Below, in pieces: positions 3,094 through 55,695 of a stretch of 64,000 bases of DNA. A program made the position numbers and the translations under genes. The notes below the pieces were generated by a model. The model was not told the origin of the DNA. It did no database searches and was given only the letters and a program-made list of their open reading frames with translations. The stretch's first letter is position 1, and every line of letters begins with the position of its first letter. The stretch is from an uncultured Nitrososphaeraceae archaeon (lineage in GTDB: Archaea > Thermoproteota > Nitrososphaeria > Nitrososphaerales > Nitrososphaeraceae): NCBI GenBank assembly GCA_963837175.1, contig CAWIMJ010000005.1:1-64000 (forward strand), read 5' to 3'.

Positions 3094-4701
3094 TTATTTC
3101 CTTTTATTAGATATAACTTCAATACCATCTTGGGTATATCTCAAAAGTGAAAGTCGGAATGCGTCAAAGAGATCGTATGTGAGGTTACCCTTGCTCTTAT
3201 CCAAACCTCCATTCTCTAAAGTACGAGCAACTCTAATCTGTGTAATAAGTTGCTGGTGTTTCATTGGATGAATAGCAATCAATCCATTTCCAAACAGAAA
3301 CTTCAAATGTGAAATCATTTTTGTTCCATGTCCGGAACCAAATGATACAGGGTACTATTCTTCTACTACTGTAAAGAAAAGGATCTCGCTCATAATCTAC
3401 TATCTCGTCTCCAAACCTCTGCTTAAGAGACTTTATGAAAGATACGTTAGCGGCATCCACATAGACTTTATCAATATGATAAGGACCAACAATCAAATTG
3501 TAAGCAATATCAACCATAGCTTCATGATGTGCATGTTCAAATTCTTTACTGTAAATAACTCTAGCTTTACCATCAATATACTCTGATACTACAAAAGCAA
3601 ATTTTGAAGAACCGTATCCAGCATCTATCCCTAATGTTTTAGTTGTATGAACATTACCCGTTAGTAAATGTTCCATTGACTTACCCAAAGACATAGCAGA
3701 GTCTAATTCAGAAGGTGTAACAACATTACCAATTCCATAGCCGTACTGCAGATTATACTCTCTTTGAAAGGAAGGAGATTTCATTGCTTCTGCAATCTCT
3801 TGTTGAGTGTAAACTTTCCCTAATCCTACTGTGTAAGGTAGAAACATTCTATGATAGATACAAGTCTTGTCGTCTTCTAACTCTATCTTTTCAAATAATC
3901 CTCCCGGTAGATTAGGAGTTGACACCATTGCAATGATAGGATCTGATTTACCAATGTACCTCTCTGATACAATCCTGGCATTCTCTTGCTCCCCTGGTGG
4001 GAAAAAGTCTCCCTCGTCTATCAGGATTAATTTAACATCCGTAAGTCCACGCATCGCATCTAAATGATGGCTGGGGTAGGCCTCAATAATGCAATGATTT
4101 AGTACAAGTACAGTCTCTTTAGTGTTAAATACAATCCCTGAATTTTGCGATATAATCACCTTTAATCTATCAATAAGAGTGACTGCTAAATTAACTCGAG
4201 GACCCGTAACTACACAGATTCGTTTGTATTGTAGTGCATTATCTCTAGTACAAATAAAGGCAATATATCTTAGAAAGAACTCGCTAATTCCAAGACCGGT
4301 AGATTTCTTTATCCAGATGTATTTCTTTTTCTCTTTTCTTTTCTGTCTTTCCTCTTTGCCCTCTTTGCTCTTCTTTTCTCCCTCCCCCAGTTTTTCCTTT
4401 TCTTGTTCTTCTCCTCCGCTTTTTTTTCCTTTTCTTCTTTCTCTTTCCTCCTTTCTTCTTCTTCCTCTTTCATCATTTTTTTCCCCTCTTCCTGCTCTCC
4501 TCCTTCTAATAAACGTAAGATATCCATCTCATAATCAAAGATTGCTTTCTCCGTTCCTTCATTACCCTTCTTTGGTAGACCAACTATATGATTCCAACAA
4601 CACAAATCCCCATACTTAGAATCCTCTTCTTTATGTTTGTCTTTATCTTCTATCCAGAACGGCTTACCTTTGAGTAGAGAAAGAAAGCGTTCTTCTTTCA
4701 T
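3094..4701 (-). CDS. Terminase large subunit-like ATPase-nuclease, split by two frameshifts
   Basis: The frame of ORF 3233..4159 extends upstream to YIWIKKSTGLGISEFFLRY (Walker A-like). Walker B is ILIDEGDF and the coupling motif is VSTP. RNase H-type acidic motifs are LGIDAG, VYVDAAN and DLFDAFRL (the last in ORF 3094..3318). The N-terminus is in ORF 4309..4701. Confidence 0.8.
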
Positions 4702-5000
4702 AGCATTCTCGTTATAGAGAATGGGGTTGTTCTTCTCTAGTCTTCTTCTGAAGTGCTCGTAAACCGGAATGCATCATTACCATATTATTATTATTATTAT
4801 CATTCTATCTTCTATCTCTTCTACTTCTTTTTAATGTTAACTAAATTATAATCTAAATAAATAAACTAAATCAAAAGACTTTACCATTCTTCTTATTGCT
4901 GTTGTACTATCGTTATTGTTATTATTCCTACTATTATCATTATTATCGTTATTATCATCGTCATCATCATTATTCTCATCTCCTTCTTCTTCTTTATCTT

Positions 5001-5501
5001 CTATATCAGAAGAATCTTCATTAGTAGCAGTAGTACTGGTATTATTGGTAGAATAAGTATTGTTATTATCGTCATTATCCAAACATCGTGCAGTATATCC
5101 GTAGTCTTAGTTATCTCCACATATCTATTCTTCATATTCTGAGCATAAGCAATTCCTTGCTCAATCACTTCTCCTCCAGAAGATAACTCCATCTTTGCAG
5201 AGGTTGCATCTGATATGAGACTGAGTAGTGCAATCTTAGCTTGAATAGGAGTATGTTTATCATTAACTAATTGCCAACTGCGATTAATAACCTGCGATAT
5301 ATTTTCATAGCATTCATTATAAATCAAAGGTAGTTTTTCAGAAAGGAATTGCCGCATAGAAGCCGCCGCGTCCTTACGAAGTTGTTGCATTGTTAAACAT
5401 ACAAGACTTTGATTTACGTGTAATATGCCGGATATCTGTGCTTGATTATACCCTTGGCTTGAAAGAGAGAATACCATATCTTTTCTGTAATTGGCCAACA
5501 C
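5001..5501 (-). CDS. N-terminal HTH plus helical protein; candidate terminase small subunit
   Basis: RKDMVFSLSSQGYNQAQISGILHVNQSLV is an HTH-like segment, directly upstream of TerL. It probably has low-complexity extensions (to ~5803 and to 4846) across frameshifts. Confidence 0.55.
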   Translation of the reverse strand: MLANYRKDMVFSLSSQGYNQAQISGILHVNQSLVCLTMQQLRKDAAASMRQFLSEKLPLIYNECYENISQVINRSWQLVNDKHTPIQAKIALLSLISDATSAKMELSSGGEVIEQGIAYAQNMKNRYVEITKTTDILHDVWIMTIITILILPIIPVLLLLMKILLI

Positions 5502-5988
5502 TTTTTGTTTCTTTCTAGAATGTCCTTCTCTTGGTTCTTTTAATCGGCCTGCAGTCGTGGATGGTGTTCGTTCGCCATAATGATTACGACCATAATTATT
5601 ATTATTACTATTACTATCACCATTACTACCACCACGAAATGAAAACGGTGCTGAAGAATAAATAGGATTTTCTACTTTGAAAACGTTGTTGTCTTCTTCT
5701 CCTATGCCTCCTCCTCTTAAGTCTCTTCTATCATCTAGGTTCTCTTTATTGTTATTATCGTTGCCGCTCTCCTACTACCACCAGTATTCTTATTATTACT
5801 CATAGATACGATATACGATTGTTATTAATGTGAAACTTTATTAAACTTTTTCTAAATTAAATGAATTAATATCAGAAAATATCATGACGATATCAAAAGG
5901 ATATCTAGTAACATAATAATATTAGTACTTAACTAATACTATTACTAACCAAATCCCTTCCTCCTCCTCATAAATTAACATCGCTATA

Positions 5989-7368
5989 TCACTCACTCAT
6001 CTTGTTGTTGTTATTTACATCATCAGCAGACAGCAGTAGTTTCTCTCGCTCCTTTATTATTTTTCCTTTTGCATTTCCAAAATGTACAAGATTTTTTTCA
6101 ATTCCAATGAACTTCCTTCCGAGTTTTAATGCAGCTCTCCCATTAGTACCTATGCCCATCATTGGATCAAGTATTATCTCATTTTCTAATGTAATTCTAT
6201 CGATAATCTCTTGTGCCTCTACTACCGATTGTTCCCAAGGATGCTCTTGTTTTTCAGGTGGCTTTGATTCTATAAAAGTGGGAGTGTATCCAATTGATTC
6301 TGCCAGTTTCTCTCCTTTAAAACAATAGAGCATAAATTTACATCCTGCATACATCTGTGCTTCAGGTAGAATTGCATGTTTGCCTGTCATCTTTACAGCA
6401 ATTAGACCATTATATCTAAGGCCTGCATTTCTCATACAATCCAGTATTTCATGAAGCATACCGTTTCCAAAATAAAACACCATAGGAGCACCTGGTTTTA
6501 GTACTCGAGCTGCAAGTTTGAATGCTGCATCATACAAGAACAACGAATGACGATCGTAAGGTGGATCGGTGACTATCGCACCAACTGAATTATCTGGGAT
6601 GTCTTTGCCGTATTCGATAAAATCACCATTAATTAATTTGAATCCTTCAGGTAATGGAATTGTTGCTTGCTTTTCCAATGCTTCTTTTTTAGACTGCTCA
6701 TAATTCTTCTGTCTTTTATATTCATTATACCCCTCATTGACTGTAATCTTGCCTGATTTAACTTTCTCCCATTCTTGTGGACTTTCATCGATTAATGTTT
6801 CGCCTCTGAAGAAGGTAGTAGCTGATACTCCTATATCTTTGGCAATTACTTTATCAACTCTACCTATAGGCGATAGTAGAGTTGGTGATAATGGTGATAT
6901 CGGTGATGATATAGAAGAAGAATCAGAAGAATCAGAAGATAGCTGTGTTTCATATGAAACAGAGCTATCACTACTATTTCCTTTTCCTTTACCATATAAT
7001 TTGCCTGCTAATGACTGATTTTTCTCTGCTAACTTTTGATAGAGATGCTTGAATTTATGACCAAACTCAATCTTCTGTGCATCAGTCATATGCCTTCTTT
7101 TCCCATTAATGTCTTTTATATAGAGTAATTCTAGTAAGGGATCGTCAAAGCATTTTACTTGAATCTCCGGTTCAAGCCCTAGCTCACTACATGCTCTGTA
7201 TCTATGATGACCATCAATTAAAACACCATTCTGATTGACAATGATGGGAATATACTGACCATTATTTTTGATAGATTCCTTTAATGCCTGAAATTGTTGT
7301 TCTGACAGCTTTGACACTAGATTCTCATATTCAGGATTTATTGTTATTGTTGTTATTGTTATTTCCAA
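5989..7368 (-). CDS. ParB/Srx N-terminal domain fused to an N6/N4 DNA methyltransferase
   Basis: PIIVNQNGVLIDGHHRYRAC (ParB-N), IVTDPPY (catalytic motif), HPWEQS, ILDPMMGIGT and FIGIEKN (SAM-binding motifs). Confidence 0.9.
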   Translation of the reverse strand: MEITITTITINPEYENLVSKLSEQQFQALKESIKNNGQYIPIIVNQNGVLIDGHHRYRACSELGLEPEIQVKCFDDPLLELLYIKDINGKRRHMTDAQKIEFGHKFKHLYQKLAEKNQSLAGKLYGKGKGNSSDSSVSYETQLSSDSSDSSSISSPISPLSPTLLSPIGRVDKVIAKDIGVSATTFFRGETLIDESPQEWEKVKSGKITVNEGYNEYKRQKNYEQSKKEALEKQATIPLPEGFKLINGDFIEYGKDIPDNSVGAIVTDPPYDRHSLFLYDAAFKLAARVLKPGAPMVFYFGNGMLHEILDCMRNAGLRYNGLIAVKMTGKHAILPEAQMYAGCKFMLYCFKGEKLAESIGYTPTFIESKPPEKQEHPWEQSVVEAQEIIDRITLENEIILDPMMGIGTNGRAALKLGRKFIGIEKNLVHFGNAKGKIIKEREKLLLSADDVNNNNKMSE

Positions 7369-7466
7369 TGTAGTTTCTTCCTTTTCCTCGCTTTTCCTTA
7401 CTTCCTTACTTTTTTACTTCCTCTTACCACTACTACTTTACTTCTTTGCTTGCTTGCTTTACTTCA

Positions 7467-7832
7467 TTACTTTGCATTACTAGTTACGATAATGTACTCT
7501 GTATCTGACATAGTGCTGCCTTTTCTTGTGATCTTCAAAGTAAGATTACCCTCTTCAATATTTGCCACAATACCCTTACCCCATGTTGGACTAAACTTCA
7601 TAAGTTTAAATCGTGTCCACTTCCCTTCATCTATGCGCTCAGAAGCTGTAAAGACATATTTCATAGACTTTTGCGGTGCCTCTCCTTCCTTCTCAAATAC
7701 CTCTTCTCTAAAGTCTGTCTTTGTTGGATTTATCCTTACTATCTTTGTATCCCCGTCCTTGAATCTAATCTCTGAAAACCTGCTTGCGCTATATGCTTCC
7801 TCTGCTGCTGTGACTTGTTGAAGTCTCTGCAT
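7467..7832 (-). CDS. Putative OB-fold single-stranded DNA-binding protein
   Basis: FKDGDTKIVRI near the N-terminus and LKITRKGSTMSDTEYII at the C-terminus resemble phage gp32-like SSB motifs (from recall). Confidence 0.5.
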   Translation of the reverse strand: MQRLQQVTAAEEAYSASRFSEIRFKDGDTKIVRINPTKTDFREEVFEKEGEAPQKSMKYVFTASERIDEGKWTRFKLMKFSPTWGKGIVANIEEGNLTLKITRKGSTMSDTEYIIVTSNAK

Positions 7833-8140
7833 TCCTAAATCGTCAATTACGTTAGTTGGTGGAATTGATAAAAATTCTTCTTCATATTCCTGTTGTCCTT
7901 GCTGCTGTTGTCCTTGTCCTTGTTGCCTGCTGTGACGTTGTTGTTGTACTTACTACACTATTTCCATTTGTATTTAATCTTTTTTGTTGATGTTGTACTT
8001 GATCTTTTGTTGAAATCATGTCTTTTATATTCATTTATTACTATACATATGTGGTATATAAATTTATGCTCTACACTACAGGTATAAGATAAACTACTAG
8101 ACTCAATATCTATATAGGTATGAATAATAGTCTTTAATAG

Positions 8141-8338
8141 TTGATGACAAAAAAAGTGCTTGCTCATGATATAGTAAATGTGCGCGCTGCTAGAAGCGAT
8201 AAAGACTATGTGCCGCTACTTGTTTCAATTCCTAGAACAATAGTCGAAGCTATAAACATAAAGAAAGATGATAAACTGCATATGTATACAGATGGAGAGC
8301 GAATCTATCTAGATAAAATTAAGGAACCAGAATTATAA
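8141..8338 (+). CDS. AbrB/MazE/SpoVT-family DNA-binding protein
   Basis: LLVSIPRTIVEAINIKKDDKLHMYTDGERIYL. Confidence 0.8.
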   Translation: MMTKKVLAHDIVNVRAARSDKDYVPLLVSIPRTIVEAINIKKDDKLHMYTDGERIYLDKIKEPEL

Positions 8339-8591
8339 GAATCCACATAATCTTTTGTCCTTTCTTCTTTGAGTTTTTCTTTTAAATTCCCCCAATCGTG
8401 AGGGACTAATTGACTAGTAATAGATTCTTCCTCTTTTTGGAACAGAAACTGTTCCACAATCTCTTATTTTTACTAATTGACTAGTAATAGATTCTTCTTC
8501 TGCTACAATTTTAGAGAATTTTTTCGAAAACTTTGCCTCTCTTCCCTCCTTGATATGAATCCACATAATCTTTTGTCCTTTCTTCTTTGAG
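8339..8591. repeat. Nested direct repeats (A-B-B-A) around a hairpin
   Basis: 35-bp perfect repeat GAATCCACATAATCTTTTGTCCTTTCTTCTTTGAG at 8339-8373 and 8557-8591. 26-bp perfect repeat ACTAATTGACTAGTAATAGATTCTTC at 8405-8430 and 8472-8497. Hairpin TGGAACAG-AAA-CTGTTCCA at 8438-8456. Confidence 0.9.
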
Positions 8592-8830
8592 CTCTTCGAA
8601 ATTATTGTATTTACAACCATAACTTGTACATTTTACTGGCGGCCTATTACCTTCCCAATATAGTAATTCCTCTAATGTACCGAGCTTTGGAAACTAGGTT
8701 ACATGGTATTTTACATGGTGGGTACATCTGGCACAGTAATAGGAGAATGGAGTAGAAGGAGGAGAGGAGGAGTCTAAGTATGATGAGGGTGATGGTGACG
8801 ATGACATGATGATAGTAAGTAGGGTAGTAG

Positions 8831-9376
8831 TTACCTAAACTCAGAATTTAGGTAACTGTCAATATCCTCCTCATTTGTGGGATTGAGTCCTTTACTTTGC
8901 ATTTCAGAAGTAATGAAATTATTCAAGTTCTCATAACTACTATTTTTAATACCTTTTTGTTTTGCTTCTACAATAGACATAATGTTCAAAAGTCGTTGTT
9001 CTAAGACACGCTGTTTTACACACTTATATGCCCACTCAAGAGTTACTTTACGGCCTTTACCATGTAATCTATCTACATATTCTTTAGCTAATTCATTATT
9101 ACTACCACCACTACTCTCTACCTGTTTTTTTAAGAAACTCGACCTTTCGAACAGTAGTAGTCTGTTATATCACAATCTTCTCCTGCTGCTCTGTTATAGG
9201 CCCAATCATTCCAACTTCTGCCAATGTATTTCTTTCTTAGTTTGCCTTTGTCTTTCCAATACGCGTACATATATGGCACATGAATTTTTTCATGATGCAT
9301 ATAGGCATCTACATTCTCTATTACCACATTTGACATACTCTTTTCTTATTATTGCATTCTCTGGAATGAAATCCAT
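8831..9376 (-). CDS. DUF6788-like Cys/His protein, frameshifted
   Basis: MDFIPENAIIRKEYVKCGNRECRC, then HVPYMYAYWKDKGKLRKKYIG (ORF 9130..9336), then a third frame ending at 8831. Confidence 0.55.
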
Positions 9377-9518
9377 TATTGTAATTTAAACACCTACCTT
9401 ACCTTACCTTCCTATCTACTTTCTTATCGTTGCAAGCCAGCCTGCCCTCAAATTCCTTCGCTCTATAATATCCACTATAACCTCTGCGCGCTGTTCTAAT
9501 GTATAGTATGTTGGTAAG

Positions 9519-9707
9519 TCATAATGACTTACCTACCCTTGGTGCGTCAATCAGATCTTCCTCATGTCGTTCTAACATATGCAGTGCAAGAAATGGTTTA
9601 TCGATTGCCCTGTAAGAGGAGCAAAACCCACAGGAGATATATCTCGCGAGTGGATCTTCTCGTATGTAGATTAATCTTATACTGGCTGCAACTGCACTAA
9701 TAGTCAT
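9519..9707 (-). CDS. Small C2H2-type zinc-finger protein
   Basis: CGFC-x13-HMLERH; the ATG overlaps the inferred primase stop (TAATG). Confidence 0.55.
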   Translation of the reverse strand: MTISAVAASIRLIYIREDPLARYISCGFCSSYRAIDKPFLALHMLERHEEDLIDAPRVGKSL

Positions 9708-10851
9708 TATGAATGTGACATCTCCTGTTGCAAGCGTCTATGTAGTTCTGGATTATACTTTGCCAGAGTATCAAAACTCATATGGTATATTTGGGGCTTT
9801 TTTGACGAATTATTTACTGCAGATCTTATCAGGTATTCTGCATTAAATTTAGTCTTGATAGAGGACTGCATTTATTCTGCAACCAGTCTTGTATTACTTG
9901 CACTGCTTGTTCATGTAAAAGCTTTTTCTTATATAGTAGGTACGGTGCAAGAATAAGGCTTACTGCATTCTTTCTAAAGTCTCCTATTCCTATTTGCAAC
10001 AGGCATTCAATCCAGCCGGTGATATCAGAGCCGCCATTATTGGAGTGATGTAGCCATTTCTTCTTGCGACTCTCCTCAGATTCAGATTCTTTGGCCCGCT
10101 TCATCTCCTCGATCTTATCTTTGAAGCGGTTATCAAATAGGTAATATCTAAAGTCCCGGAGAACATATTGAATCGCTCCTCGCTCACCGTTCCAAGGCTG
10201 GATTATTGCAACTTCTTGCTCTGGCTGTCGCTTTGTATTCATAGTATATGGGACCCGAAGTAAACATGATTTGACCGTGGGTGTATGTGCTCTATCGCAT
10301 CTACCATTTGTAAAGAATCGCTCTGCAAAGCCCATAAACACAGAAGTCAAATCTTTGTTCCTGTTAATTCTCCACCAATCAGCAAACTCTGCAAACACTT
10401 CATGTTGTTCTGGTATGATGTCGCCGCTTAGCGGTAGATAGATGTGGAATCCTCCGCCGGTCCATAGGACTGTCGGCTGTATGTTATCGCCGAAAGCCTT
10501 CTGAATATTCTTGCAAGTCCTGTCCTTGACCCGGTCCAATTTCACTCTATCATTTGAGAAATTTGTCAGATCCAGATCTATAAAGATAAAGTTAGCCGGC
10601 TGTCTATTTATGCCATTGTAGGATGTGTATCTGGGAAATGCATTGATTCTGCAGTCCTTGTAATTTGCAGCCTTGAAATATGCCAGGATCTGATCCTTGG
10701 AGGATACTACAACCTGTCCTGGGGTCCCAGCAGTCATTATGGTCCGCGGGAATATGGGTTCTTGGGAGTGTTGGAGGGTAAAGTCCACTGCGTCATTAAC
10801 CTTCTGTTCTCGAGTCGAAGAAGAAGGTGGCTGTATTGTCGTCATAACCAT
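9707..10851 (-). CDS. Archaeo-eukaryotic primase (AEP) domain fused to a PriX-like C-terminal domain
   Basis: FIFIDLD, WTGGGFHIY and LLRVPYTMN are AEP motifs. WIECLLQIGIGDFRKNAVSLILAPYLL is PriX-like. A 1-nt shift near 9845 continues NAEYLIRSAV...YNPELHRRL to a stop at 9707. Confidence 0.8.
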
Positions 10852-10871
10852 GGCTATTAGATAGCCTCCTG

Positions 10872-11195
10872 TTATGGTGGTGGATATTCCGACGTCGAAA
10901 TTGCCGGAGGAGAAGAGGAAAGCAGGGCTGCTTTTACTTCAGGATTAGAATTTTCGTCTCTTACATAAGATGTCAGTCGCTTGCATTGATCCACCGCATA
11001 CTCTAATCGGGCGTCCATACCTCCACCTTTACCGACAGGTACTTTGACCATAGCCATTCTATGATTCTCAAACAAGTGGAATTTAAGGTCAAACACTATG
11101 TAGGTCATTGTCTGACGCTGAATTCCAGTACACCAGAAGCAGTAATACTTTAGGTCGTCAATGTTCACGTCATGGTGACTATAATTACTACCCAC
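10872..11195 (-). CDS. C2H2-type zinc-finger protein
   Basis: YYCFWC...FDLKFHLFENH. Confidence 0.55.
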   Translation of the reverse strand: MGSNYSHHDVNIDDLKYYCFWCTGIQRQTMTYIVFDLKFHLFENHRMAMVKVPVGKGGGMDARLEYAVDQCKRLTSYVRDENSNPEVKAALLSSSPPAISTSEYPPP

Positions 11196-11234
11196 TAGAA
11201 CAATTCTCCTCCTTCTCTAACGAAAAAATATTCT

Positions 11235-11299
11235 TTACGGGACATTACGGGGCTACTGAACTTTTGATTGAGACCCGTAGATCTCCGTAAGCTCCGTAA
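11235..11299. repeat. Inverted array of TTACGG/CCGTAA hexamers, candidate origin iterons
   Basis: TTACGG at 11235 and 11245; CCGTAG at 11275; CCGTAA at 11285 and 11294. Confidence 0.5.
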
Positions 11300-11511
11300 A
11301 ATGCGATTTTTCATAAGTATTGCAAGAAATACAATACCAATGTACGAATTCTTGTTTTTGAGATGAGAGTGATTAAATAATTTATACGGGTCTCTTTTAT
11401 GGGTCTCTTGCGTTTTTAAGATATTTACCCCAGTAACCATTTTTATAATTATTTTCTATCGCCTCCCTCTTTACTAGCAGACCTCCGATTATATTTTATA
11501 ATAAACGCTTC

Positions 11512-13820
11512 TCAAAGTCCTCTGGTGTTGGATAGTACATTTTTACCAGGATGCTCAGAGTCTATATGTTTAACACGCTCCATATCACTTGAATAAACTT
11601 GACTACAGTAAAAGCAATTGAACCTCTTGTGTTCTTTCTCCTGCAACTGTGGTGAGGAAGTTGGCGATACTTGATCAATCGATGATGCTATAGTAGGCGG
11701 TATAGAAGACCGCCAATCCTCTTTATCCTGCCATTCTACTTCATTAGGATATATTAAATTATTCGTTTTCGACTGAATCGAATAATTTATTTGAAGCATT
11801 ATCTTCAGGACTTAACTTTTCCACATTTTGATAAGAGTTTTCTTGTAATTCACTATCGATTTCATTAGTTTCCCGATATTCTTCTAACAACCCACTTTTC
11901 GCTAAATTATTTTGCTCTTGTGATGGAGTGGATTGAAGGAAGAACGAGGACAAGTCCTGGCGAACTGGACTATATGTCGTTACTTTAGAACAAATGATAG
12001 ATTTTTCATATATAATGTTATTTTGGATGCTGCTGGTGTTGGAAATATTCGCTACTGTCGCAGAGGAGGAGAAATCTTTTGCCGCTGCTGCCTGCTTATT
12101 CTTTTCGTCATTAATATATTTTGTATTAAAGTATTCCTCTGGGTTCTTGTAATACTGATCTACTAATTCCTCTATTATTATGGTCTGGCCTTTATGATCT
12201 TTTATTTTTATTTCTAAATCGTAGTTTTCAGAATAATATCTCAAGACACCTTGAATTTTAGAGATTAGATATCTTTTATCGGGAAATAATTTAGAATCGC
12301 TAACAGGAACTTTTATTTGTTGTAAATAATTATTCGATTTATCATTTTCGAATAATTTAATATATTTTCTTGTTGTTCTTGTAATAGCGACTACAGGGTA
12401 GTATACGTTGGACCTTTTATCAAGTTCGCTTTCTGTCTTGTCTATGAACCCTTGGTTTATGAGAGGATAGATGTAAGTCTCCAGAAGCTTTTTTGTAGTA
12501 TGGCTTTGATTGTTAACTTCTCTGGTCTTCTCAACCAGCTGTTCTGTGGTTAATGCTATTCTTTTTTCCACTATTATCTTGTCATCTTTCTCTCTTGAGT
12601 CTGGTTCTGCCTTTGAGTTATATGCATCTAAGAATACATCGTAGTACCATTCCAAAATATATGGTCTTACTCCAGTTGCATATTCCATTAGAAATATCAC
12701 TTCTCGCAGGTCTTCAAACAGAGTAAAGGGTATAGTTTGTATCACAGGATTACCTTTTTCTCTTACTGTTATCTTCGGTCTTTTGTCGATGTTGATTATT
12801 GGCAACAAGTTTAAAATTCCAAACAGTCTGGTAGCTGTGGTCATATCAGAAGCATTTTGTTTAGGCAGTGAATTTGCTACAGTTTGATGAAATGGAACCA
12901 ACACATTGTTTTTGCCTGGCTTGACTCTATCGCAAATCTGTTGCATCCTGTCTTTAATTCCCAGAATTATCTCACGTGCTTTTTCCTTATCTAAATCACT
13001 TACGATTTTGGCTTGATAGGCTAGGTCAGGCAATCCATGCTTATCAGAGATCAGGTCCACTGCCCGCTCATACTTCTCTGTTGTCATCTTTAGGGTTTGT
13101 GATAATGAATCGACGCTGGATCTCATCATAACGGGAGTTGTTACTATAGTCTATGGCTTGTGCAAATATTACAGCAGGCCAGCCTCTTAGTATATTAGTT
13201 CTAGTTTTTATTCCATTATGAGTATCAACATACTCATACTCAATCTCGTATCTGTCATGAGATAGCAATGACATAATAGCAGCAAAAAATTCTGGTCTTG
13301 GACTGTCAAAAAATATCAGGACCTTGTGCGATAAATCAATAAGCTTCTTGGCATTCTTTAATAGATCTTCCTTTTCCTTTTCGAGATCTTTTATATTGCT
13401 TTGCAGTGCTTTCTTTAAGTCGCTATTGGTTGTCTTTTTTATTTCAGTTTCGTTCTCTTCTATTTTATCATCAATTTCTTTTATGCTTTCGTCAATTGGT
13501 TTATAATCACCAGATTCATTTTTCACAACCAAAATACCTGCTCTATGGAACAGCGCCTTTTCGCTCATACCTGCAAGCGGTACCACATCAGCTTTAGGAA
13601 AATATTCGAGGACCTTGTTTATGACGTGGCTTTTTCCTACACCAGTAGGTGCATTGACAGCAAGGTTGAGAGGGTTATTTGTGTATGCGCTTAATATGAC
13701 ATAGAACAATTGCTTAACTAACCTATCCTCTTTTCTGGCTTCTCTTAGCATTAGATCCACACAGAACATCACCGAGTCATTGACATCAGCGAAATCGAAG
13801 TACATTTTAATAAAACTCAC
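11512..13820 (-). CDS. AAA+/MCM-like ATPase (putative replicative helicase) with winged-helix-like region and C-terminal C2H2 finger; two frameshifts
   Basis: NPLNLAVNAPTGVGKSH (Walker A), LIFFD and EIQRRFII (Arg finger-like). Overlapping ORFs 13068..13820, 11759..13129 and 11512..11799 (CFYC...HIDSEH) appear to join. Confidence 0.7.
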
Positions 13821-13858
13821 CTTCGCAGGTTCTGCGCTCGTGAACCTCTTCTGTTTTC

Positions 13859-14077
13859 TCAGACTCCATGTAGCCTTTGTTGTAATGTTTTGTCATTATG
13901 TCTCTGCTTAAATACTGCCTTTCGCACAACCAGGGAGTCGCCTACATGCTCCCATGTAAAATAATCTCCTTTGGTAATTTTTAATTTATTTGCAAATTGA
14001 CGTGGCAACACGATGTAAAAGCTTCTGTCCGAGCCAGCTTGCACCTTTCTTAGTTCTGCTTGTTCATGATATAACAT
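13859..14077 (-). CDS. AbrB/MazE/SpoVT-family DNA-binding protein
   Basis: RKVQAGSDRSFYIVLPRQFANKLKITKGDYF. Confidence 0.8.
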   Translation of the reverse strand: MLYHEQAELRKVQAGSDRSFYIVLPRQFANKLKITKGDYFTWEHVGDSLVVRKAVFKQRHNDKTLQQRLHGV

Positions 14078-14081
14078 GATT

Positions 14082-14107
14082 TTCTAGATTATATTTATTA
14101 TCTAGAA
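14082..14107. promoter_or_regulatory. Palindromic operator candidate between divergent genes
   Basis: TTCTAGAT-(TATATTTATT)-ATCTAGAA, an 8-bp inverted repeat around an AT-rich TATA-like core. Confidence 0.4.
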
Positions 14108-14144
14108 GTACGAGGGAAGTACTGTTAGGTGTAATTACTTCATA

Positions 14145-14883
14145 ATGTCAAGAAAGCGCAGACACCTCCATCTGTTCAAAATGTGGAAAGCCCGGCTCTT
14201 TACAACGAGATTGGGTAAGAAGTAGTCGTTACGCAGTTTCACCTGAAACAACCCTTGCTGCTAATGGAAAGTGGGTTGATGAAGAGGAAAAAGATTTCGA
14301 AACTGAAACTATTCAAAAGAAAAGACGCTTCAAGACATTTTCGGACAAATATCTCCATAATTACGTAGTGCATTATGACTCTATAACTCACAAAAGAAAA
14401 AAACACTATATAGATAATATTAGGAAGAAAGAAGAGAAATCTGCTAATCCTAGAGAGGTATTGGTATATTCAATAATGCAGCATGTAAAAACCATTCAAG
14501 GAATAGAAAAGAAAATTTTGAAGTATCCTCCTACTAATCCAGTAGATGATAAACGAATTGCTCAGGCCTTCCGTGAATACACAAATATACTTAATCCAAA
14601 TTTTAAAGGGCCACTCCCAGACTGGTTTAAAGAACTGGAGAGAATTAGACAAGAGTATGACAAGCTGATGCAACAAAAAAGAGAGAAAGTGATTGATAGG
14701 ATTAAAGTAGAGGAATTTGAAAATATTCCTGAGGTAAAGGCAATAATACTTACCAAAGCTAGAGAACTTATTAATGCAATACCAATATATCGCGAATTAG
14801 TATATTGGCACAAACATTACGTAGAACCCCATCTGGCAGATAGAAGTAATTCACTAGCTGATATATTGAGCGAAAAAGCTTAA
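14145..14883 (+). CDS. Hypothetical protein with an N-terminal CxxC zinc ribbon; frameshift near the start
   Basis: The frame of ORF 14368..14883 extends upstream through ICSKCGKPGSL...YVVHYD...KKHYI; the ATG at 14145 is out of frame. Confidence 0.55.
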
Positions 14884-15081
14884 TCTATTTTAGTATGAAT
14901 TCTTTTATATTCTGTATAGTTGTTGTCGTTTATGCTGGTTTATTTGCTTAATGAATAGAGATTATTCGGAGGTTAATTGATGAATATATTCTCGTTAACA
15001 GAGCCTGACCAAGAACAACTCTGCTTTTAGAGATTGTTATAAAGGAGCGTATTAAATTATGTAATACACTTTATCATTAAC

Positions 15082-15702
15082 GTGGACGTTATTAAGTATC
15101 CTATATATCCAATACTTAAATCAGGAGATGTTGTAATTTGGGATTTTACGAATTTCGAGAAATCAGATAAAAACGAGCTGTTGACTTCCAATGATATACT
15201 GCAGCCTAAAAAGGTAGATGATAATTATCTTACTTTTTGCAAATGTCATTTTAATGTTAAGTCTTTAATTTATGAAAAAGCGACACCCGAAGATGTTTTA
15301 TCCGGCTGGATATCAGCAAATGAAGAACTCAAATTAGGCAGACTGGCAAAATTGTTTCTTCGTGACTCACTCTATAATCTTTATTTGACTAAGCATTTCC
15401 ATAACGAGCCAGACTTAATTTTAGTATTAAGACTAGCGTATTGGTTTTATAGATGCAGTCGTCTTAATAGTAATGATTCTTTTAAGTACAAGATAACTGA
15501 GGTTAAGAGAAAATTAACTAAAGGGTTATTAAATCAAAGAGAAAAAATAAACAGGCAGCTAAGCCATCATACTAATAATATTACTATCGTGAATACCTTA
15601 ATTTCAGAGTTGGAACAGATTATATTCCAATTTAGAAATAATAAAGATATACGTAAAGAATTACGAGAGCGATCCGCTAAATATAGGGCTCTGTTCACTT
15701 AA
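15082..15702 (+). CDS. Hypothetical protein, 3' end probably truncated by IS6
   Basis: 206-aa ORF whose stop lies inside the IS6 left IR. Confidence 0.55.
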   Translation: MDVIKYPIYPILKSGDVVIWDFTNFEKSDKNELLTSNDILQPKKVDDNYLTFCKCHFNVKSLIYEKATPEDVLSGWISANEELKLGRLAKLFLRDSLYNLYLTKHFHNEPDLILVLRLAYWFYRCSRLNSNDSFKYKITEVKRKLTKGLLNQREKINRQLSHHTNNITIVNTLISELEQIIFQFRNNKDIRKELRERSAKYRALFT

Positions 15703-16362
15703 CGATAAATCTATAGCTTGAAGATGTCCTATCTCTTTTTATGAATACAAGAAACAGAACATCTTCAGAATATATTGGCTATGGTCTATATTTTTATTTT
15801 TCAGGTCTTTCATTAAGAAAGACATCCGAAAGATTATCGTTTTGTTTTATAAAGAGAAATCATGTATCAATCTGGAATTGGATACAAAAGTATAAACCCA
15901 AAAAGATATTTGAAAGAAAAAAGAAAATCGAGAAATTCATTATCGATGAAATATTAATAAAAATTGGTTCAGAATTGATATGGCTTTGGGTTGCTATTGA
16001 ACTTGAGAGTAAGGAAATCCATAGAATTAGTATATCTAAAGAGAGAAATATGCTCTTAGCTGAGCGATTTATTTCAAGCTTAGTTGGGATTCATGGTCAA
16101 CATCCAGTTTCCACAGATGGAGGTACTTGGTATCCACAAGCTTGTAGGTTCTTGAGATTGCCTCATCATATCCATTCCTCTTATGAGAAAAGCATTATAG
16201 AAAGAACAATGCAGTACATAAAAGATAGAACACAGAATGCTTTGATAATGACTATTTCCCTTGCAGAAAGAAGAATTGTAAATTATTACATGTGTGGAAT
16301 TGGTTAAATCTATTCATAGGTTATCATAACAAGCAATTACAAATCGTTAAGTGAACAGAGCC
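15687..16362 (+). mobile_element. IS6-family insertion sequence (676 bp)
   Basis: 20-bp perfect IRs GGCTCTGTTCACTTAACGAT and ATCGTTAAGTGAACAGAGCC. The flanking 8-mers differ (AAATATAG vs GTACTATA), so there is no TSD. Confidence 0.92.
15741..16354 (+). CDS. IS6-family DDE transposase, frameshift near the C-terminus
   Basis: GLSLRKT...HVSIWNWIQKY, IIDEILIKIG...WLWVAIE, STDGGTWYPQAC, IIERTMQYIKDRT. The alternative frame ends WNWLNLFIGYHNKQLQIVK*. Confidence 0.9.
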
Positions 16363-16411: not shown

Positions 16412-16753
16412 GTGGCAAGCAAGAAAAATAGATCTTCAGAGGATAAGTCTGATAGAGCAACAGACAGTAATAATTCCGGAGAGCAGGAAGGCCAAGGTCA
16501 GCGACCACAAGAACCTGGGAAAGAGAGACAGGTACATGAAGAGATCATTGCACGCCACTATGAAGGAGGCATGGCTCCGACTCCAGAGGCTTATAGACGT
16601 GCACTTAAGCAATGGCAGCAGCTACCTGGATCGATAGTGCGGCCTCCAACAGATGTGCAGCCACCGGCCAAGAAAGCATCAAATCCTTCTAATGCGACGT
16701 CTACGTCCCAGCCAACAGCCGATGAGCAGACCGACAGAGAGTCTCAGAAATGA
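16412..16753 (+). CDS. Hydrophilic protein resembling the N-terminal leader region of BNR beta-propeller proteins
   Basis: PTPEAYRRALKQWQQLP; ATGA overlap with the propeller gene. Confidence 0.55.
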   Translation: MASKKNRSSEDKSDRATDSNNSGEQEGQGQRPQEPGKERQVHEEIIARHYEGGMAPTPEAYRRALKQWQQLPGSIVRPPTDVQPPAKKASNPSNATSTSQPTADEQTDRESQK

Positions 16754-19670
16754 CGCTGAACGGAAGGGTATGGGCTCCCATCGGTCCTAGCCCTATGATT
16801 GGAGTTCAGGTGGATTCAAGCTGCAATGTAATCGGGAACCGCAGCGACAACGGTTTAGTTTCCTCAATTGCCATTAGTCCTTCTAATCCAAATATCATTT
16901 ATAGAGGCACGCAGGGCGGAGGCTTGTGGCTGAGCAAAGATGGTGGCACCACATGGACACCGATCTTTGACCGGCAACTATCACTTATTGTAGGGGAGCC
17001 CAACGCCATTGCGATTGACCCAAATAATACTGATACAGTGTATGTAGGCACTAGCGCACGTCAAACTGTCCCGGGAACGTTCACCATGCAGGCCACAAGC
17101 AGGTTTGTTTAAATCGACTGATGGGGGCAGTAGCTGGATACAGCTCGGCTCCGGCTTCCCGTCCGGCAATACAGGCAACGCCATACAGTTTGTAAATCAA
17201 TGGATCAATGTAATCATTGTTGATCCTGCCAATAGCGACATCCTCTACCTGGCATCGAACAGCGGAGTATTTTGGTCCAACGATGGCGGCCAGAATTGGA
17301 CGCTGGGTGTAAATTCCAACGGGGATGTTCGTTCGCTCGTGCTTGACACATCTACTCCAGCCGGCTCGCGCACCCTGTACGCGGGCATTTCTGGACGTGG
17401 TGTGTTCCGATCAAATGATGGCGGTCTAAATTGGATAGAAATTCTCAGCGCGACCACTCCACCACCACCAGGTAACCCGGTAGCGACAGCAATAGGTTCG
17501 GGTGGTTTTAACAAGGTCGTAGTTGATATTGCGCCTCCTACCTCGCCTCCTAGCGCAGGAGGTGTGCAGGTGCTATACGTGAGCCTGCAAGGAACCGGAG
17601 GCGCCCTCGACCCGGTAGGAGTCTTCAGGAGGCACAGATCGGGGAGCAACGTGGTCCCAGCGCACCGCCACTAACATGCCCACCAATACACAGGGCGGAT
17701 ACAGCTTTCATATGGCTGTAGATCCAGGCTCACCAGGCGACGGGATCAATGACATCATTTACTTCGGCGCTGTCGGTCAGGCAAGATCAAACGACTCAGG
17801 AAATAACTTTACCACCATGACGGGTCTACATGGCGACACCCATTCGTGGGCCTTTTTTCGGCAGCCTAGTCCCGCGGCATCGATTGTGTTCAATGGTAAC
17901 GATGGTGGTCTTTTTAGGTCTACTGATGGCGGGGTGTCCTGGGCATCCCTCAACGCAGGCGGCCTGCAGACAGGCCTGTTCTACAATATAGATATCAGAC
18001 CCGATGCCACTGGCAGTGTCACTGTGGGTGCTCCGCAGGATAATGGCCTCCAGACTACCTCGGCAGTCGCCGCACCTAACTGGAGCAGCCCTCAAGGCGG
18101 CGACGGCTGGGATATAGCTTATGATGGAGTGACGCCCGGCCGCGTCTACGGTACCAGTGGATTCTGGCCTGCTCCCTGCACGAGGGTCTTCGTTTCGACG
18201 GTTGACGGGGCAGACTTCCCGCCATGTGTTTTCACCACACCGACGAGCCAGGAAATTACACCCCCCTGGGGTACGACGAGCGACCAGCGATGTACACTCT
18301 TTCCAATTACTACAGACCCTAGTACTGCGGGAATTGTATATGTCAGTGGTAACCAGAATTTATGGCAAAGCAGAAACGCTGGAGCTGCAGGTAGCTGGCG
18401 TATCCTCTCTTTCTTTGCTAACACCGGTAACGTTGATGTGTCAAGGACTAATGGGAACAACGTCGTCATCGCCGTTGGTAGTCAGGTATTTCTATCGACC
18501 AATGCGCTAGCGACCACGGTGGGCGCACCGTCGGGGGTTGCCTTCAATAACATAACAAGGGATCTGCCGACGGGGAGAAATGTCATACGGGCAGTTTTCG
18601 ATCCTAATGATCCCAACACAATTTATGCAGTGATGGGTGGGATAAGCGGTGCCTCAGGAGGACACGTTTTTCGCACTTCCATAGGCTCATCGACATGGAC
18701 TGACATTTCGCCTGCGCTAGATATTCCCTTCAGTTCTATTGCGCTTGACGGCTCGGACACTCCTACTTGTATCTATGTAGGCACTGACTTCGGTGTACTG
18801 CGCTCAGTCGATGGCGGCTCCACGTGGTACATACTCGATGATATTCACTTTCCACGAGTGCCGGTCTGGGACCTCGTATTTAGGAATGGAGAACTGCGCG
18901 CTGGCACCTATGGCCGAGGTGTTTTTGCATTTGTTAAACCCATTGGCCCCGCCATCGCCGTGGATCTAGAACATGACCTGGAATTTGGAACTGTCTTCGA
19001 GGGGCCACAGTATTTGAAACTGGAGATCTTCAATGTTGGCGTCCAGGATTTAGTAATCAATAGCCTCCAACGTCTGATGGGCTCCAACGGCTTTACGGTG
19101 TTGCAAGCCCCAGTACCCCATTGGCTATCATGCCTGGCAATCATGTTGACTTCACAATTAGGTACATCCCTACTGCTACGAGTTGCAGTCAGGAAACTGC
19201 AATAATCCGCATTAGCAGCAATGATCCATCGGCTCGCTTTGTAGATTTGCTGACTACTGGCACTGGAAGAGTTCCAATATCTCAGATTAGAGCCCGCATA
19301 GAGACAGGAAATCACGACCCTGATAGGAATACTAGGGTCTATTTAGGATTTGACGGTAAGCATGGTAGGGAGTTTAGAATGAGAACAACTGATGATGCAA
19401 ATCCATTTAGACAAGGCACAGCGCTAGACATTGTATTTGGAAGCGGTGCTAATGTAAGAGATAAAGACATTAACGATCCTACACAACCCCAAATGGATCA
19501 AAATTGCGTAACAGGCGCATATATTAGAATTGAACCAGGACAGGAGAAACCATGGAAAATTGCAAGTGCTCAAGTATTCATAAATGGAAGTGGAACTCCT
19601 ATGTTTTCTCTAAAGCTTCCAAACATAGTACCTGGAAGAGGATGCAGGAGAAAAGGTATCTCTTGGATAA
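16750..19670 (+). CDS. BNR/Asp-box beta-propeller protein (GH74/VPS10-like) with Ig-like and PLAT-like domains; several frameshifts
   Basis: Many Asp boxes (SKDGGTTW, STDGGSSW, SNDGGQNW, SNDGGLNW, STDGGVSW, SVDGGSTW), GTYGRG, an Ig-like LEFGTV...IFNVG...ISSNDP segment and a C-terminal PLAT-like domain. Four overlapping ORFs; visibly higher GC than the flanks. Confidence 0.8.
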
Positions 19671-20156
19671 TAATCAAGTACAACAAAACAGGAGAAAAAT
19701 CGCGACGACATTAATAAGTAGATACACTTTTAAGCATAGCATAGAAGAGGAGTTCCAATGATAATATCTCAGATTAGAGCCCGCATAGAGACAGGAAATC
19801 ACGACCCTGATAGGAATACTAGGGTCTATTTAGGATTTGACGGTAAGCATGGTAGGGAGTTTAGAATGAGAACAACTGATGATGCAAATCCATTTAGACA
19901 AGGCACAGCGCCAGACATTGTATTTGGAAGCAGTGCTAATGTAAGAGATTCGAGCATCAATAATCCTAGTGATCCGCCTATGGATGATACCCAAATAACA
20001 GGCGCATATATTAGAATTGAACCAAGACAGGAGAAACGATGGGAAATTGCAAGTGCTCAAGTATTCATAAATGGAAGTGGAACTCCTATGTTTTCTCTAA
20101 ATCTTCCTAACATAGTATTAGAAGACGATACTACAGATAAGGTATCTCTTGGATAG
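19276..20156 (+). repeat. Tandem ~395-bp duplication (19276-19670 and 19763-20156)
   Basis: The first ~145 bp are identical; the rest is highly similar. Confidence 0.92.
19758..20156 (+). CDS. Stand-alone PLAT/LH2-like domain protein
   Basis: IRARIETG...RVYLGFDG...FRQG...D...IRIEP...WEIASAQV pattern; duplicate of the preceding gene's C-terminus. Confidence 0.6.
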   Translation: MIISQIRARIETGNHDPDRNTRVYLGFDGKHGREFRMRTTDDANPFRQGTAPDIVFGSSANVRDSSINNPSDPPMDDTQITGAYIRIEPRQEKRWEIASAQVFINGSGTPMFSLNLPNIVLEDDTTDKVSLG

Positions 20157-22770: not shown

Positions 22771-22864
22771 CTGTAAACTAGAACATGTTAGCAATTGGAT
22801 GAATCAGTTTGTTTATATGCATAATAGAATGCTTATTAAAAGAAAAAATTAAGTGAACAGAGCC
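22771..22864 (+). mobile_element. IS6 3'-end fragment
   Basis: Encodes CKLEHVSNWMNQFVYMHN (compare CRLEHIINWFNVFVDYHN near 58270) and ends in IR TTAAGTGAACAGAGCC (22849-22864). Confidence 0.85.
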
Positions 22865-28255: not shown

Positions 28256-28470
28256 TTAACAGACTTGGTTTATTGTCATGTTCGGTCGTATATCGGCTTG
28301 TTCTGGTGACCAATTGATTTGATGGTAAGCTGCTTCTACTTTACTATGGTCAATAGGAGCATTAGCAGTGGTGACTTGATTTTTTTCTGATTTTTCTGCT
28401 ACGTATCTTATTGCGTCATCAACTACAGTCGCATTAGTATTATCTTTTCTCTTTTATCTTCTGTTATTGT
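28256..28470 (-). pseudogene. C-terminal relic of an HTH/TerS-like family related to 5001..5501
   Basis: Reads TEDKREKI and TNATVVDDAIRYVAEK...TINQVC*; aligns with QAKI...GGEVIEQGIAY of the TerS-like gene. Confidence 0.5.
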
Positions 28471-29160: not shown

Positions 29161-29994
29161 ACAAATACCATCTAAATAAGAGTTCAGTGTATCTATAATT
29201 TATAACCTGCTCTATCTGGGGTGTATATATTATTACTGTTATTTTTTCTGCAGTTGTGAAGCCATCAGAAGAAATACTTTAAGCACCCAAGATAATCATT
29301 CCACATAGTTAGGCATTTTTTGTCATGATCGATATCTGTATTTCTCATCTTGATATTTAAAAAAGATATTATATCGTCTTTACTTTCGATATCAAGAAAA
29401 TTAAATCTAAATCTATAAAGTAGGCAAAAACTATCATTGCTTTAGGGTTCTGATTTTGATAATTTTCAGATGTGCAGTTAGCTTTTATATGTTTATAAAA
29501 ATCTCTAATTAGCATTGAGTTATCTGGATTGGATATAGAACTGATTTTATTTATCGTAGTAGTCAGTCTAATTGTTATTGTCTAGTTAGTTTCCTCCTTT
29601 AAAACTATATCCTTCAGTTTATGGTCTCCTACAGTGGCATAAGAACCCACATAGTTAGCGGGTTCGGTGGTTCTCGACCTGATAGCAGTTCAAAAAAGAA
29701 TTCCAATTCAATTAACAGACAGGTTAACTTTCAAGTTTTCGGATTATTATAAAAGTTAAAAAGTTGGTTATTCATACAAAATGATGCCGATAGTTCAAAC
29801 CCTAGTTCCACTAATGATATCACTGCTAAAAATGGGTTTTCAATATTGAAATAAATGAATTGGACACTAGGTTTCTCATTAATTCTCTTTATTTGATAGG
29901 TGATGTAATTTCAATGCTATTATACATAAGTTGAAATAAGTATAGATGATAAACCACAGCTACTTGTTATCAAATTTTAGAAAACACTTTGCAT

Positions 29995-55361: not shown

Positions 55362-55695
55362 GGCTCTGTTAACTTAACCACTCCCCCATTACTAGGAACG
55401 TTATGAATTTTATTCTGTTTGTGTACGCATATATGGGTACAATATAAATAATAATTTCAACCAGTTCCAAACATGCTATCTCTATTTGCTATCCTGTCTC
55501 CTACATGGAAAATGATTGTCAAAGCATTCGGTTCTATCTTTTCTATCTGTTGTACAAATCTTTCCTTCTATTAAGTTCTTAAGGCCCGTAATATCATAGA
55601 CGATGGTGCTTTAACCTTAGCCATCACTTGCAAGCATCATCCTCATTCATCGTAACTTTCTGACAACCGCCCATCTGTGTAAATGACTTTTCTAC
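55362..55695 (-). mobile_element. Degraded IS6 3' half
   Basis: IR GGCTCTGTTAACTTAAC at 55362; minus-strand fragments IYTDG, KDRTECFDNHFPCRR and HVWNWLKL. Confidence 0.85.

Follow-up and report, generated by a model that had tools for sequence, protein, structure and literature searches.

The first 64,000 nucleotides of contig CAWIMJ010000005.1 of an uncultured Nitrososphaeraceae archaeon (assembly GCA_963837175.1), referred to below as the window, contain the remains of a mobile element between position 3094, or 1665 if its probable extension is included, and position 14993. On balance, we read this element as a decayed satellite of archaeal head-tailed viruses that resembles the phage-inducible chromosomal islands (PICIs) and brings its own terminase. 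The element has no capsid genes and combines a replication module of its own, consisting of a primase and an NTPase, with packaging genes. Its only Caudovirales-like genes are those of the small and large terminase subunits (TerS and TerL), and it fits the cryptic TerS-TerL type. The first-pass annotation of the window had proposed a capsid-less replication-plus-packaging element, which is correct as a trait of the family, but it missed that the copy in the window is dead: this copy is a relic, immobilized and decaying. The window begins at the first base of the 76.8-kb contig (C5), which belongs to an assembly of 3.81 Mb in 58 contigs with a G+C content of 33.5% and a completeness of 91%.

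The relatives of the window TerL were gathered with an alignment as the query; the single protein P0006, used as a query, gave no related locus. The family comprises 2372 proteins at E ≤ 1e-5 out of 3855 candidates. Three sets of loci were analyzed: 79 genomic loci, taken from the 80 best among 189 confirmed stretches; 80 metagenome loci, the best among 512; and, for comparison, 35 viral contigs with a related TerL from IMG/VR. P0006 is an intact relative (75% identity) that matches phrog_2 (TerL) at 9.6e-18, and 7 of 13 aligned family members contain Terminase_6C. As the first-pass annotation had anticipated for the ATPase-nuclease, the AlphaFold model of P0006 (pLDDT 76) resembles solved terminases; Foldseek matches it over both the ATPase and the nuclease domain to the TerL proteins of T4 (gp17), D6E, HK97, Sf6, and T7, with E values from 4e-16 to 3e-11. 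Judged from this predicted structure, the family consists of Duplodnaviria large terminases with an ASCE ATPase and an RNase H-like nuclease, although the polypeptide in the window is itself broken. Sequence searches of the PDB with TerL, as a single protein or as a profile, gave no match. The pieces of the window TerL have no match in Pfam, and in PHROG the N-terminal piece alone matches, to phrog_38 (E = 6e-4).

On the viral contigs, a TerL that is 30 to 43% identical to the query is followed by a portal of ~120 + 450 residues (phrog_9232) and then by a protease-capsid fusion of ~620 residues (phrog_267). Profiles of the portal and the major capsid protein (MCP) were built from the portals and capsids of these viral relatives and cover one viral lineage. 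With the portal profile, matches were obtained in 33 of the 35 viral and none of the 80 metagenome loci, and L064 is the one match among the 79 genomic loci; the corresponding counts for the MCP profile are 19/35, 0/80, and 1/79 (again L064). The matches in L064 are strong (E = 6e-76 for the portal and 2e-156 for the capsid), and in the published provirus Nvie-Pro1, which served as a positive control, the portal was found at 8e-79 and the MCP at 2e-159. Neither profile has a match in the window or in the whole genome, and the generic Pfam families Phage_capsid and Phage_portal have none in this genome. At least 3 kb of sequence lies behind TerL in 50 of the 79 genomic and 21 of the 80 metagenome loci, so that a portal could have been seen in these 50 + 21 loci. 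Of 202 ORFs of at least 150 residues within 8 kb behind TerL, the 104 co-directional ones were scanned with Pfam, and viral structural domains occur in L064 only; the other ORFs are cellular (IMPDH, RadA, AdoHcyase, AspRS, and others), defense genes, or transposases. A conserved ORF of 232 residues (cluster c9) follows TerL in some relatives and has no match in Pfam, PHROG, or Atlas. The routine linkage of close TerL homologs to portal and capsid genes, which the first-pass annotation had named as a possible objection, is not what these loci contain, and the absence of capsid genes is a trait of the family, not a local deletion.

The same picture emerges from 120 other genomes of the family, drawn evenly as one sample that includes two genomes flagged as unpublished (G225 and G263). 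TerL is present in 75 of them; a single genome can have as many as 16 matches, many of the matches contain stops, and in one genome (G264) contig C10 alone has copies in eight places. A portal was found in three and an MCP in the same three, in each case 1 to 4 kb from a TerL. TerL occurs in 15 of the 18 genera in this tally, in which the genome of the window is counted. In other families of the class, it was found in 1 of 114, 1 of 5, and 0 of 67 genomes, which include one unpublished genome (G132). The element family is widespread in Nitrososphaeraceae.

The capsid-less TerL proteins also form a lineage of their own. The tree was calculated from 49 genomic ORFs of 425 to 580 residues from 48 loci, 34 viral TerL proteins, and the middle piece of the window TerL; shorter and broken genomic ORFs were left out. 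A branch with a length of 0.59 and a support of 100/100 places 46 capsid-less TerL proteins and the window on one side and all 34 viral TerL proteins together with L064, L065, and L079 on the other. L065 is the sister of L064, and L079 has less than 1.1 kb of DNA behind TerL. The TerL of Nvie-Pro1, when included, groups with L064 among the viral proteins, and a quick tree still supports the split at 99. The window TerL is a long basal branch on the capsid-less side. The median dN/dS of the capsid-less TerL proteins is 0.088 (range 0.04 to 0.18; 29 pairs with dS from 0.05 to 1.5), a value biased downward because intact ORFs alone entered the calculation, and it places these proteins under purifying selection, far from neutrality. 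The Walker A-like, Walker B, and coupling motifs and the three acidic motifs of the nuclease are invariant in the family. A motif of the form CC-x-N-H...GLP is located in the N-terminal extension of TerL (for example, at 4560–4600 in the window and in L006–L084); 40 of the 49 capsid-less genomic proteins have it, compared with only 3 of the 34 viral ones, and it is possibly a clade-specific patch that binds a metal or a partner. A TerL with this motif is also found on a 99.7-kb IMG/VR contig (L086) with no portal or capsid match nearby, which may be host DNA that carries an element rather than a virus.

A gene for a helix-turn-helix (HTH) protein accompanies TerL. In 33 of the 50 loci with at least 3 kb of upstream sequence, this gene is found no more than 7 kb upstream of TerL and in the same orientation, and in 19 it directly adjoins TerL. 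A comparison of its profile with that of the ORFs that precede the viral TerL genes by hhalign gave a probability of 94.7% and an E value of 5.7e-8. The predicted structure consists of an HTH domain, two long helices, and a disordered tail, as is usual for a small terminase. In the Foldseek search, the TerS of G20c/P74-26 takes ranks 1, 3, 4, 10, and 12, but these matches are not significant (best E = 0.47), and VIA-align returned only generic helical hairpins; we therefore call the protein TerS-like. The predicted complex of the TerS-like protein and TerL of locus L073 scored 0.00 in two runs, a result that carries no weight either way.

The relatives, among them intact members of the L073, L121, and L012 types, outline what an intact member contains. 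A tyrosine integrase is encoded within 10 kb of TerL in 14 of the 17 loci whose sequence extends 8 kb or more to both sides, either co-directional and 6.4 to 8.2 kb upstream or on the opposite strand and 0.3 to 6.8 kb downstream. Since the distance between the integrase and TerL is only ~7 to 8 kb, a morphogenetic module would not fit in between. The gene order in locus L069 (integrase, AbrB, an NTPase of 685 residues, PriX primase, ParB-methyltransferase, HTH, and TerL) is the order of the window. An intact member is roughly 8 to 12 kb long and carries an integrase, AbrB regulators, a PriX primase, an NTPase, sometimes a ParB-methylase, and the TerS-like and TerL genes at one end. The replication modules differ among members. 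In locus L006, an ORF of 1792 residues (3492–8867) encodes a fusion of the large NTPase and a family B DNA polymerase; the same locus contains two TerS-TerL modules 9 kb apart, with 73 to 84% DNA identity across the repeat families and 77 to 78% identity between the two TerL stretches, and the second module is broken. Scans for direct repeats in L069, L073, L006, and L068 gave no convincing attachment (att) site.

In the window, the element is a tight row of genes on the − strand from about 14077 down to 3094, as follows from the ORF calls and translations, and two further entries lie beyond its TerL end.

1665–1895, − strand: small ORF of 76 residues without a Pfam match, probably still a gene of the element
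2084–2454, − strand: two tandem small ORFs of 71 and 51 residues, with hydrophobic N termini in their translations
3094–4701, − strand: TerL pseudogene in three frames, recognized from the three-frame translation and its motifs
5001–5501, − strand: TerS-like HTH protein, assigned from position, profile homology, and predicted structure
5989–7368, − strand: fusion of ParB_N and an N6/N4 DNA methyltransferase (Pfam N6_N4_Mtase 7.7e-13, ParB_N 1.2e-4; phrog_67 1.3e-28)
7467–7832, − strand: ORF of 121 residues with no match in Pfam, PHROG, or a sequence search of the PDB
8141–8338, + strand: small DNA-binding protein of the AbrB/SpoVT type (PF04014, 4e-5)
9519–9707, − strand: small Cys/His ORF with a C2H2-like pattern, read from the translation
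9829–10851, − strand: primase with a C-terminal PriX domain (E = 3.2e-4)
10872–11195, − strand: small Cys/His ORF with a C2H2-like pattern, read from the translation
11512–11799, − strand: small Cys/His ORF with a C2H2-like pattern, read from the translation
11759–13820, − strand: large P-loop NTPase, split in two (weak Pfam matches to KAP, AAA_16, and ResIII, ~3e-3)
13859–14077, − strand: regulator of the AbrB/SpoVT type at the head of the operon (PF04014, 1.1e-6, above the curated cut-off)

Much of the gene content had been recognized in the first-pass annotation. Its compact cluster lying almost wholly on one strand, with only the AbrB gene at 8141–8338 on the other, is confirmed, as are the AbrB, PriX primase, ParB-methyltransferase, and HTH genes, the three small ORFs with C2H2-like patterns as putative zinc fingers, and the absence of portal, protease, capsid, and tail genes, for which the Pfam and PHROG scans of the element ORFs were negative. 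Its AAA+ ATPase is indeed a P-loop NTPase, but not in one gene, and its large terminase subunit is present but spread over three frames. The ORF at 7467–7832, which had been called a protein similar to single-stranded DNA-binding proteins, found no support in the searches listed above. The cluster had been taken to end in genes for tiny secreted peptides; the two ORFs with hydrophobic N termini are there, but the element probably reaches at least as far as 1665, because homologs of the ORF at 1665–1895 sit directly behind TerL in two close relatives (tblastn, 52 to 58% identity). In L120, the TerL match ends at 1805 and the homolog lies at 1845–1955; in L171, the corresponding positions are 871 and 942–1031. 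The two ORFs at 2084–2454 are linked by an 88% repeat (1993–2057 and 2235–2300), have a single weak Pfam match (MaAIMP_sms, 1.9e-4, below its cut-off), and are either cargo or an insertion.

Several of these genes have counterparts in the relatives. A homolog of the AbrB regulator at 13859–14077 occupies the same place in L069, and a homolog of the ParB-methyltransferase with 37% identity does so in L073. The primase is 41% identical to that at 6029–7123 of L016 and has a 39% identical paralog in the same genome (C48:2573–3469); the PriX match is far stronger in the homolog from L057 (1.8e-13). The N-terminal domain of the primase has no match in Pfam or in a PDB sequence search; from its motifs FIFIDLD and GGGFHIY, we take it to be similar to the archaeo-eukaryotic primases. 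The large NTPase is probably a replicative helicase or initiator, and an Atlas search led from it to archaeal and viral clusters that carry PF27228 (score 0.97), which serves as a lead only.

The damage to this copy is most evident in TerL, of which intact relatives have 491 to 498 residues and are 63 to 76% identical to it. The N-terminal piece is encoded at 4309–4701, the ATPase and most of the nuclease at 3236–4528, and the C-terminal piece at 3097–3354; the motifs KKSTGLG, LIDEGD, STPN, GIDAGYGSS, VDAAN, and DLFDAF, which correspond to the invariant columns of the family, are retained. The first break lies inside 4322–4503, where the N-terminal piece enters a purine-rich stretch that codes for Glu and Lys. 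The Walker A motif (KKSTGLG) is in a different frame from the N-terminal piece, and the middle frame lacks any start codon before 4159. In the window, 182 nucleotides separate the LLE codons from the YIW codons; in the intact relatives P0004 and P0005, the distance is 15 nucleotides. The stretch 4318–4522 was considered as an insert specific to the window and rejected, as the close relative L133 also has a low-complexity linker there, 45 residues long, rich in Glu, Lys, and Gly, and in frame. Because the linker of L133 is in frame, the linker is a trait of the sub-lineage, and the window lost its frame inside it. L133, a metagenome contig, is the closest relative of the window TerL (170–1730; 87 to 98% identity across the aligned pieces), and its TerL has different frameshifts of its own; the sub-lineage seems to decay independently in several places. 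The second break, at RRIVP|VSFGSG, results from one extra base at 3349/3350. Related contigs from all four public runs compared, including a near-identical contig from run X1 (depth 2), are without this base, which makes the lesion either a recent one or an error of the assembly.

The NTPase is split into pieces at 13068–13820 and 11759–13129 by a frameshift at 13087–13092. The single 685-residue NTPase of L069 aligns across it, with residues 26 to 251 matching 13766–13092 and residues 253 to 593 matching 13087–12077. In the TerS-like gene, a hydrophobic read-through replaces the polar tail of the relatives, which ends in N-x-x-F, and an acidic tail is found in another frame; a further frameshift near 5060 has probably corrupted this end. 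Elsewhere in the genome, the TerL matches are all fragments, and together with the window they are distributed over eight contigs (C5, C22, C16, C51, C52, C39, C8, and C35). The two integrase types of the relatives are absent from contig C5 except for a relic of 58 residues at 29268–29441.

For an intact member, the gene content suggests the following course. The element would excise by means of its integrase and replicate with its own primase and NTPase; the TerS-like protein would recognize and bind the element DNA, and TerL would dock on procapsids made by a head-tailed virus of the Nvie-Pro1 type that infects the same cell and would fill them with this DNA. Excision, helper dependence, and packaging are what we infer from the genes present. 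The corresponding claim for the whole family, that most Nitrososphaeraceae carry, often in multiple copies, unrecognized PICI-analogous satellites that keep a selected TerS-TerL pair, lack a capsid, and parasitize procapsids of the Nvie-Pro1 type, falls in our judgment just short of an even chance.

Three other explanations have to be weighed. The terminase may belong to a self-replicating, integrated, plasmid-like element that recruited it for a job other than the filling of capsids, possibly the cutting of concatemers to unit length, assistance in excision, or sabotage of the packaging of an invading virus. The capsid-less state, the replication module, and the purifying selection fit this explanation equally well; few genomes of the host family have portal and capsid genes (3 of 120), the CCxNH motif of the capsid-less clade hints at a changed partner or role, and defense genes (GmrSD-HEPN, type I restriction-modification, and a KAP NTPase) adjoin some copies. 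We nevertheless consider it unlikely, given that the ATPase and nuclease motifs of a translocating terminase are both invariant and that the TerS-like partner stays linked; a nuclease job alone would not need a motor. In addition, the available text of PMC6563490 (Krupovic et al. 2019) states that no terminase had been identified in non-viral mobile elements. An ordinary head-tailed provirus whose structural module was deleted here, the decayed provirus that the first-pass annotation had kept open, has little chance of being the right answer. The copy is decaying with insertion sequence (IS) ends on its flanks, the TerL fragments of the genome are spread over eight contigs, and NitKor-E1, the only precedent that we found in print, was judged "likely a relic" in the part of PMC6563490 available; yet portal and capsid are missing from 78 of 79 genomic and 80 of 80 metagenome loci, the capsid-less TerL proteins form one clade apart from all portal-linked ones and are under purifying selection, and the gap of ~7 kb between the integrase and TerL of L069 is full of replication genes. 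A deletion derivative is thus unlikely in view of the locus and genome counts and the terminase-like model, which make the capsid-less state a family trait.

It is also very improbable that the element is intact and active and that its frameshifts are assembly errors in DNA of low complexity or low coverage. The extra base at 3349/3350 is missing from the near-identical X1 contig and from three other runs, and the first break lies in a purine-rich repeat of a kind that assemblers handle badly, but up to four lesions would have to be explained in this way (two in TerL, one in the NTPase, and probably one in the TerS tail). The break in the NTPase is not in a homopolymer, other long ORFs of the window are intact (928, 823, and 438 residues), the contig has no integrase, L133 has different frameshifts of its own, and the other TerL copies of the genome are all fragments. 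Among the public runs listed for this sequence, the DNA runs contain at most 0.14 of the sampled words, and contigs from four of these runs leave 4318–4522 and most of 6.6–15 kb uncovered. No RNA run is among those listed.

A number of observations count against a satellite. Terminal overlaps, as expected of circular forms, are present in 0 of the 80 metagenome loci, and no form carried in particles was seen. A resident helper is rare, because portal and capsid genes occur in 3 of 120 family genomes and are absent from this 91%-complete genome. No member of the capsid-less clade is found among the 35 viral-contig relatives from IMG/VR, and the long branch that parts the capsid-less from the viral TerL proteins means that a fit to the portal of a helper is not assured. 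Many genomic TerL copies carry stops, and the measured selection is subject to the bias toward intact ORFs given above. The name TerS-like reflects an assignment from position, HTH domain, and profile homology. The portal and MCP profiles represent one viral lineage and unrelated structural genes could escape them, so that a novel capsid unrecognizable by sequence could be present. Finally, an error of the assembly could account for the extra base at 3349/3350.

The satellite reading can be compared with several known systems. In the available text of PMC6563490, five TerL matches are reported among 20 thaumarchaeal genomes, and the terminase of NitKor-E1, from Ca. Nitrosopumilus koreensis AR1, is called enigmatic and likely a relic. 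According to that description, NitKor-E1 is also integrated, has TerS directly upstream of TerL and a tyrosine integrase, and contains no other Caudovirales-like gene; it differs in being a single case, in its marine host (Nitrosopumilaceae), and in its cargo of VapBC and a restriction endonuclease. The family described here, as far as it can be set against the published description, is instead large, monophyletic, under selection, and resident in soil Nitrososphaeraceae, and it carries primase and NTPase modules. In a full-text search, the name NitKor-E1 turned up in PMC6563490 only. Nvie-Pro1 of Nitrososphaera viennensis (FR725450.1) comes from the same host family as the window and has a TerL that is 44% identical to P0006, and a virus of its type is a plausible helper. 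It differs in that genes for the portal, protease-MCP, tail tube, tape measure, and baseplate come after its TerL and in that this TerL falls in the viral clade (71% identical to that of L064); the ORF that precedes TerL has no match to the TerS-like profile.

A classical PICI encodes TerS or a redirecting protein and relies on the TerL of its helper. With the PICIs and the Staphylococcus aureus pathogenicity islands, the elements share a size of ~10 to 15 kb, an integrase, small repressors, their own primase or helicase, packaging genes, and the lack of a capsid (compare the available text of PMC10085698); they differ in having a complete pair of TerS-like and TerL genes and archaeal hosts, and induction or a helper is known for none of them. 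The capsid-forming PICIs likewise encode their own TerS and TerL but, in the accessible part of their description, also their own capsid and packaging proteins, and they steal only tails (10.1101/2022.09.08.507074); portal and capsid are absent here. Among archaea, pSSVi and pSSVx were the only satellites known before the SRCEs, according to the available text of 10.1101/2025.02.15.638363. These elements and NMV2S, a putative satellite of an Asgard virus, resemble the present family in joining a plasmid-like replication module to a fragment of viral morphogenesis or packaging functions (10.1101/2025.02.15.638363, 10.64898/2026.08.12.739948, as far as their available text goes). However, the viruses that pSSVx, pSSVi, and the SRCEs parasitize are spindle-shaped, and what these satellites carry is an AAA+ ATPase or a capsid protein of spindle viruses (same part of 10.1101/2025.02.15.638363), and for NMV2S the available text mentions no terminase (10.64898/2026.08.12.739948); in these descriptions, none is a TerS/TerL element of head-tailed viruses. 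In the literature outside subscription journals and supplements, we found no description of a capsid-less family with TerS and TerL in Nitrososphaeraceae.

Ammonia-oxidizing archaea (AOA) drive nitrification in soil, and little is known of the viruses and mobile elements associated with them. If the satellite reading is true, these elements would be the first satellites of archaeal Caudoviricetes. To our knowledge, they would also be the first satellites anywhere with a full terminase of their own but no capsid genes. They would open archaeal head-tailed viruses to studies of hyperparasitism and provide a natural case of a terminase that works on the portal of another element. Should they turn out not to be satellites, the presence of a selected terminase outside any virus would still be a puzzle in itself, in line with the word "enigmatic" in the available text of PMC6563490. 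Terminase was among the search queries of a survey that, in its available text, reports proviruses in 184 of 212 AOA genomes (PMC9859776), and in the accessible part of another study most TerL proteins grouped with "AOA provirus-derived" ones (PMC11849493). Because 75 of 120 genomes have TerL and only 3 have a portal and capsid, TerL in Nitrososphaeraceae marks mostly small capsid-less elements and not proviruses. Counts of AOA viruses and proviruses in soil that are based on TerL need a different reading, and, if the elements are satellites, much of the soil "AOA provirus" tally obtained in this way would consist of them.

The flanks of the element are marked by IS sequences, and three features there are not genes of the element.

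2484–2760, no strand assigned: unit of 277 bp with perfect 12-bp inverted repeats of the IS6-type end, containing an AbrB/SpoVT ORF (2532–2753, + strand, 73 residues; PF04014, 1.3e-3)
14994–15005, − strand: solo IS6-type terminal repeat, an exact match to the IS end GGCTCTGTTAAC
15687–16362, + strand: insertion sequence of the IS6/IS240 family (DDE_Tnp_IS240, 2.3e-7) with 12-bp inverted ends

The 277-bp unit looks like a miniature IS-derived element that carries a regulator gene, and it is not part of the terminase element. A second copy on another contig (C21:11366–11642) is 99.3% identical, and matching contigs exist in three public runs. The solo repeat at 14994–15005 marks the right limit of what remains of the element. 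A direct repeat, GTTAACAGAGCC, at 2749–2760 and 14994–15005, where the identity to the C21 copy ends, was considered as the core of an att site and rejected, because it belongs to the IS6/IS240-like IS as its terminal inverted repeat, bounds the 277-bp unit, and occurs 41 times in the genome. There is no tRNA gene in the window. A further IS6/IS240-family IS is located at 57638–58352, and additional solo ends are found at 22853–22864 and 55362–55373. Dozens of full and frameshifted copies of this IS occur genome-wide, and several contigs start or end in it, which is probably why the assembly is fragmented.

Behind the IS, the segment 16400–20160 is rich in G+C (0.54, compared with 0.33 for the genome) and looks like foreign, decaying DNA. 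Its ORFs with BNR/Asp-box repeats are split over three frames (16750–17112, 17105–17674, and 17676–19205) and are followed by a tandem duplication with 90% identity (19276–19669 and 19763–20155). Near 28 to 29 kb, a weak TerS-like fragment (28259–28453, E = 5.6e-5) and the integrase fragment at 29268–29441 (E = 1e-6) are additional relics of this type of element, and a KAP-family NTPase (22866–25652) and a pentapeptide-repeat gene (26537–27724) are located in the same neighborhood. The first 30 kb of the window as a whole looks like a graveyard of mobile elements.

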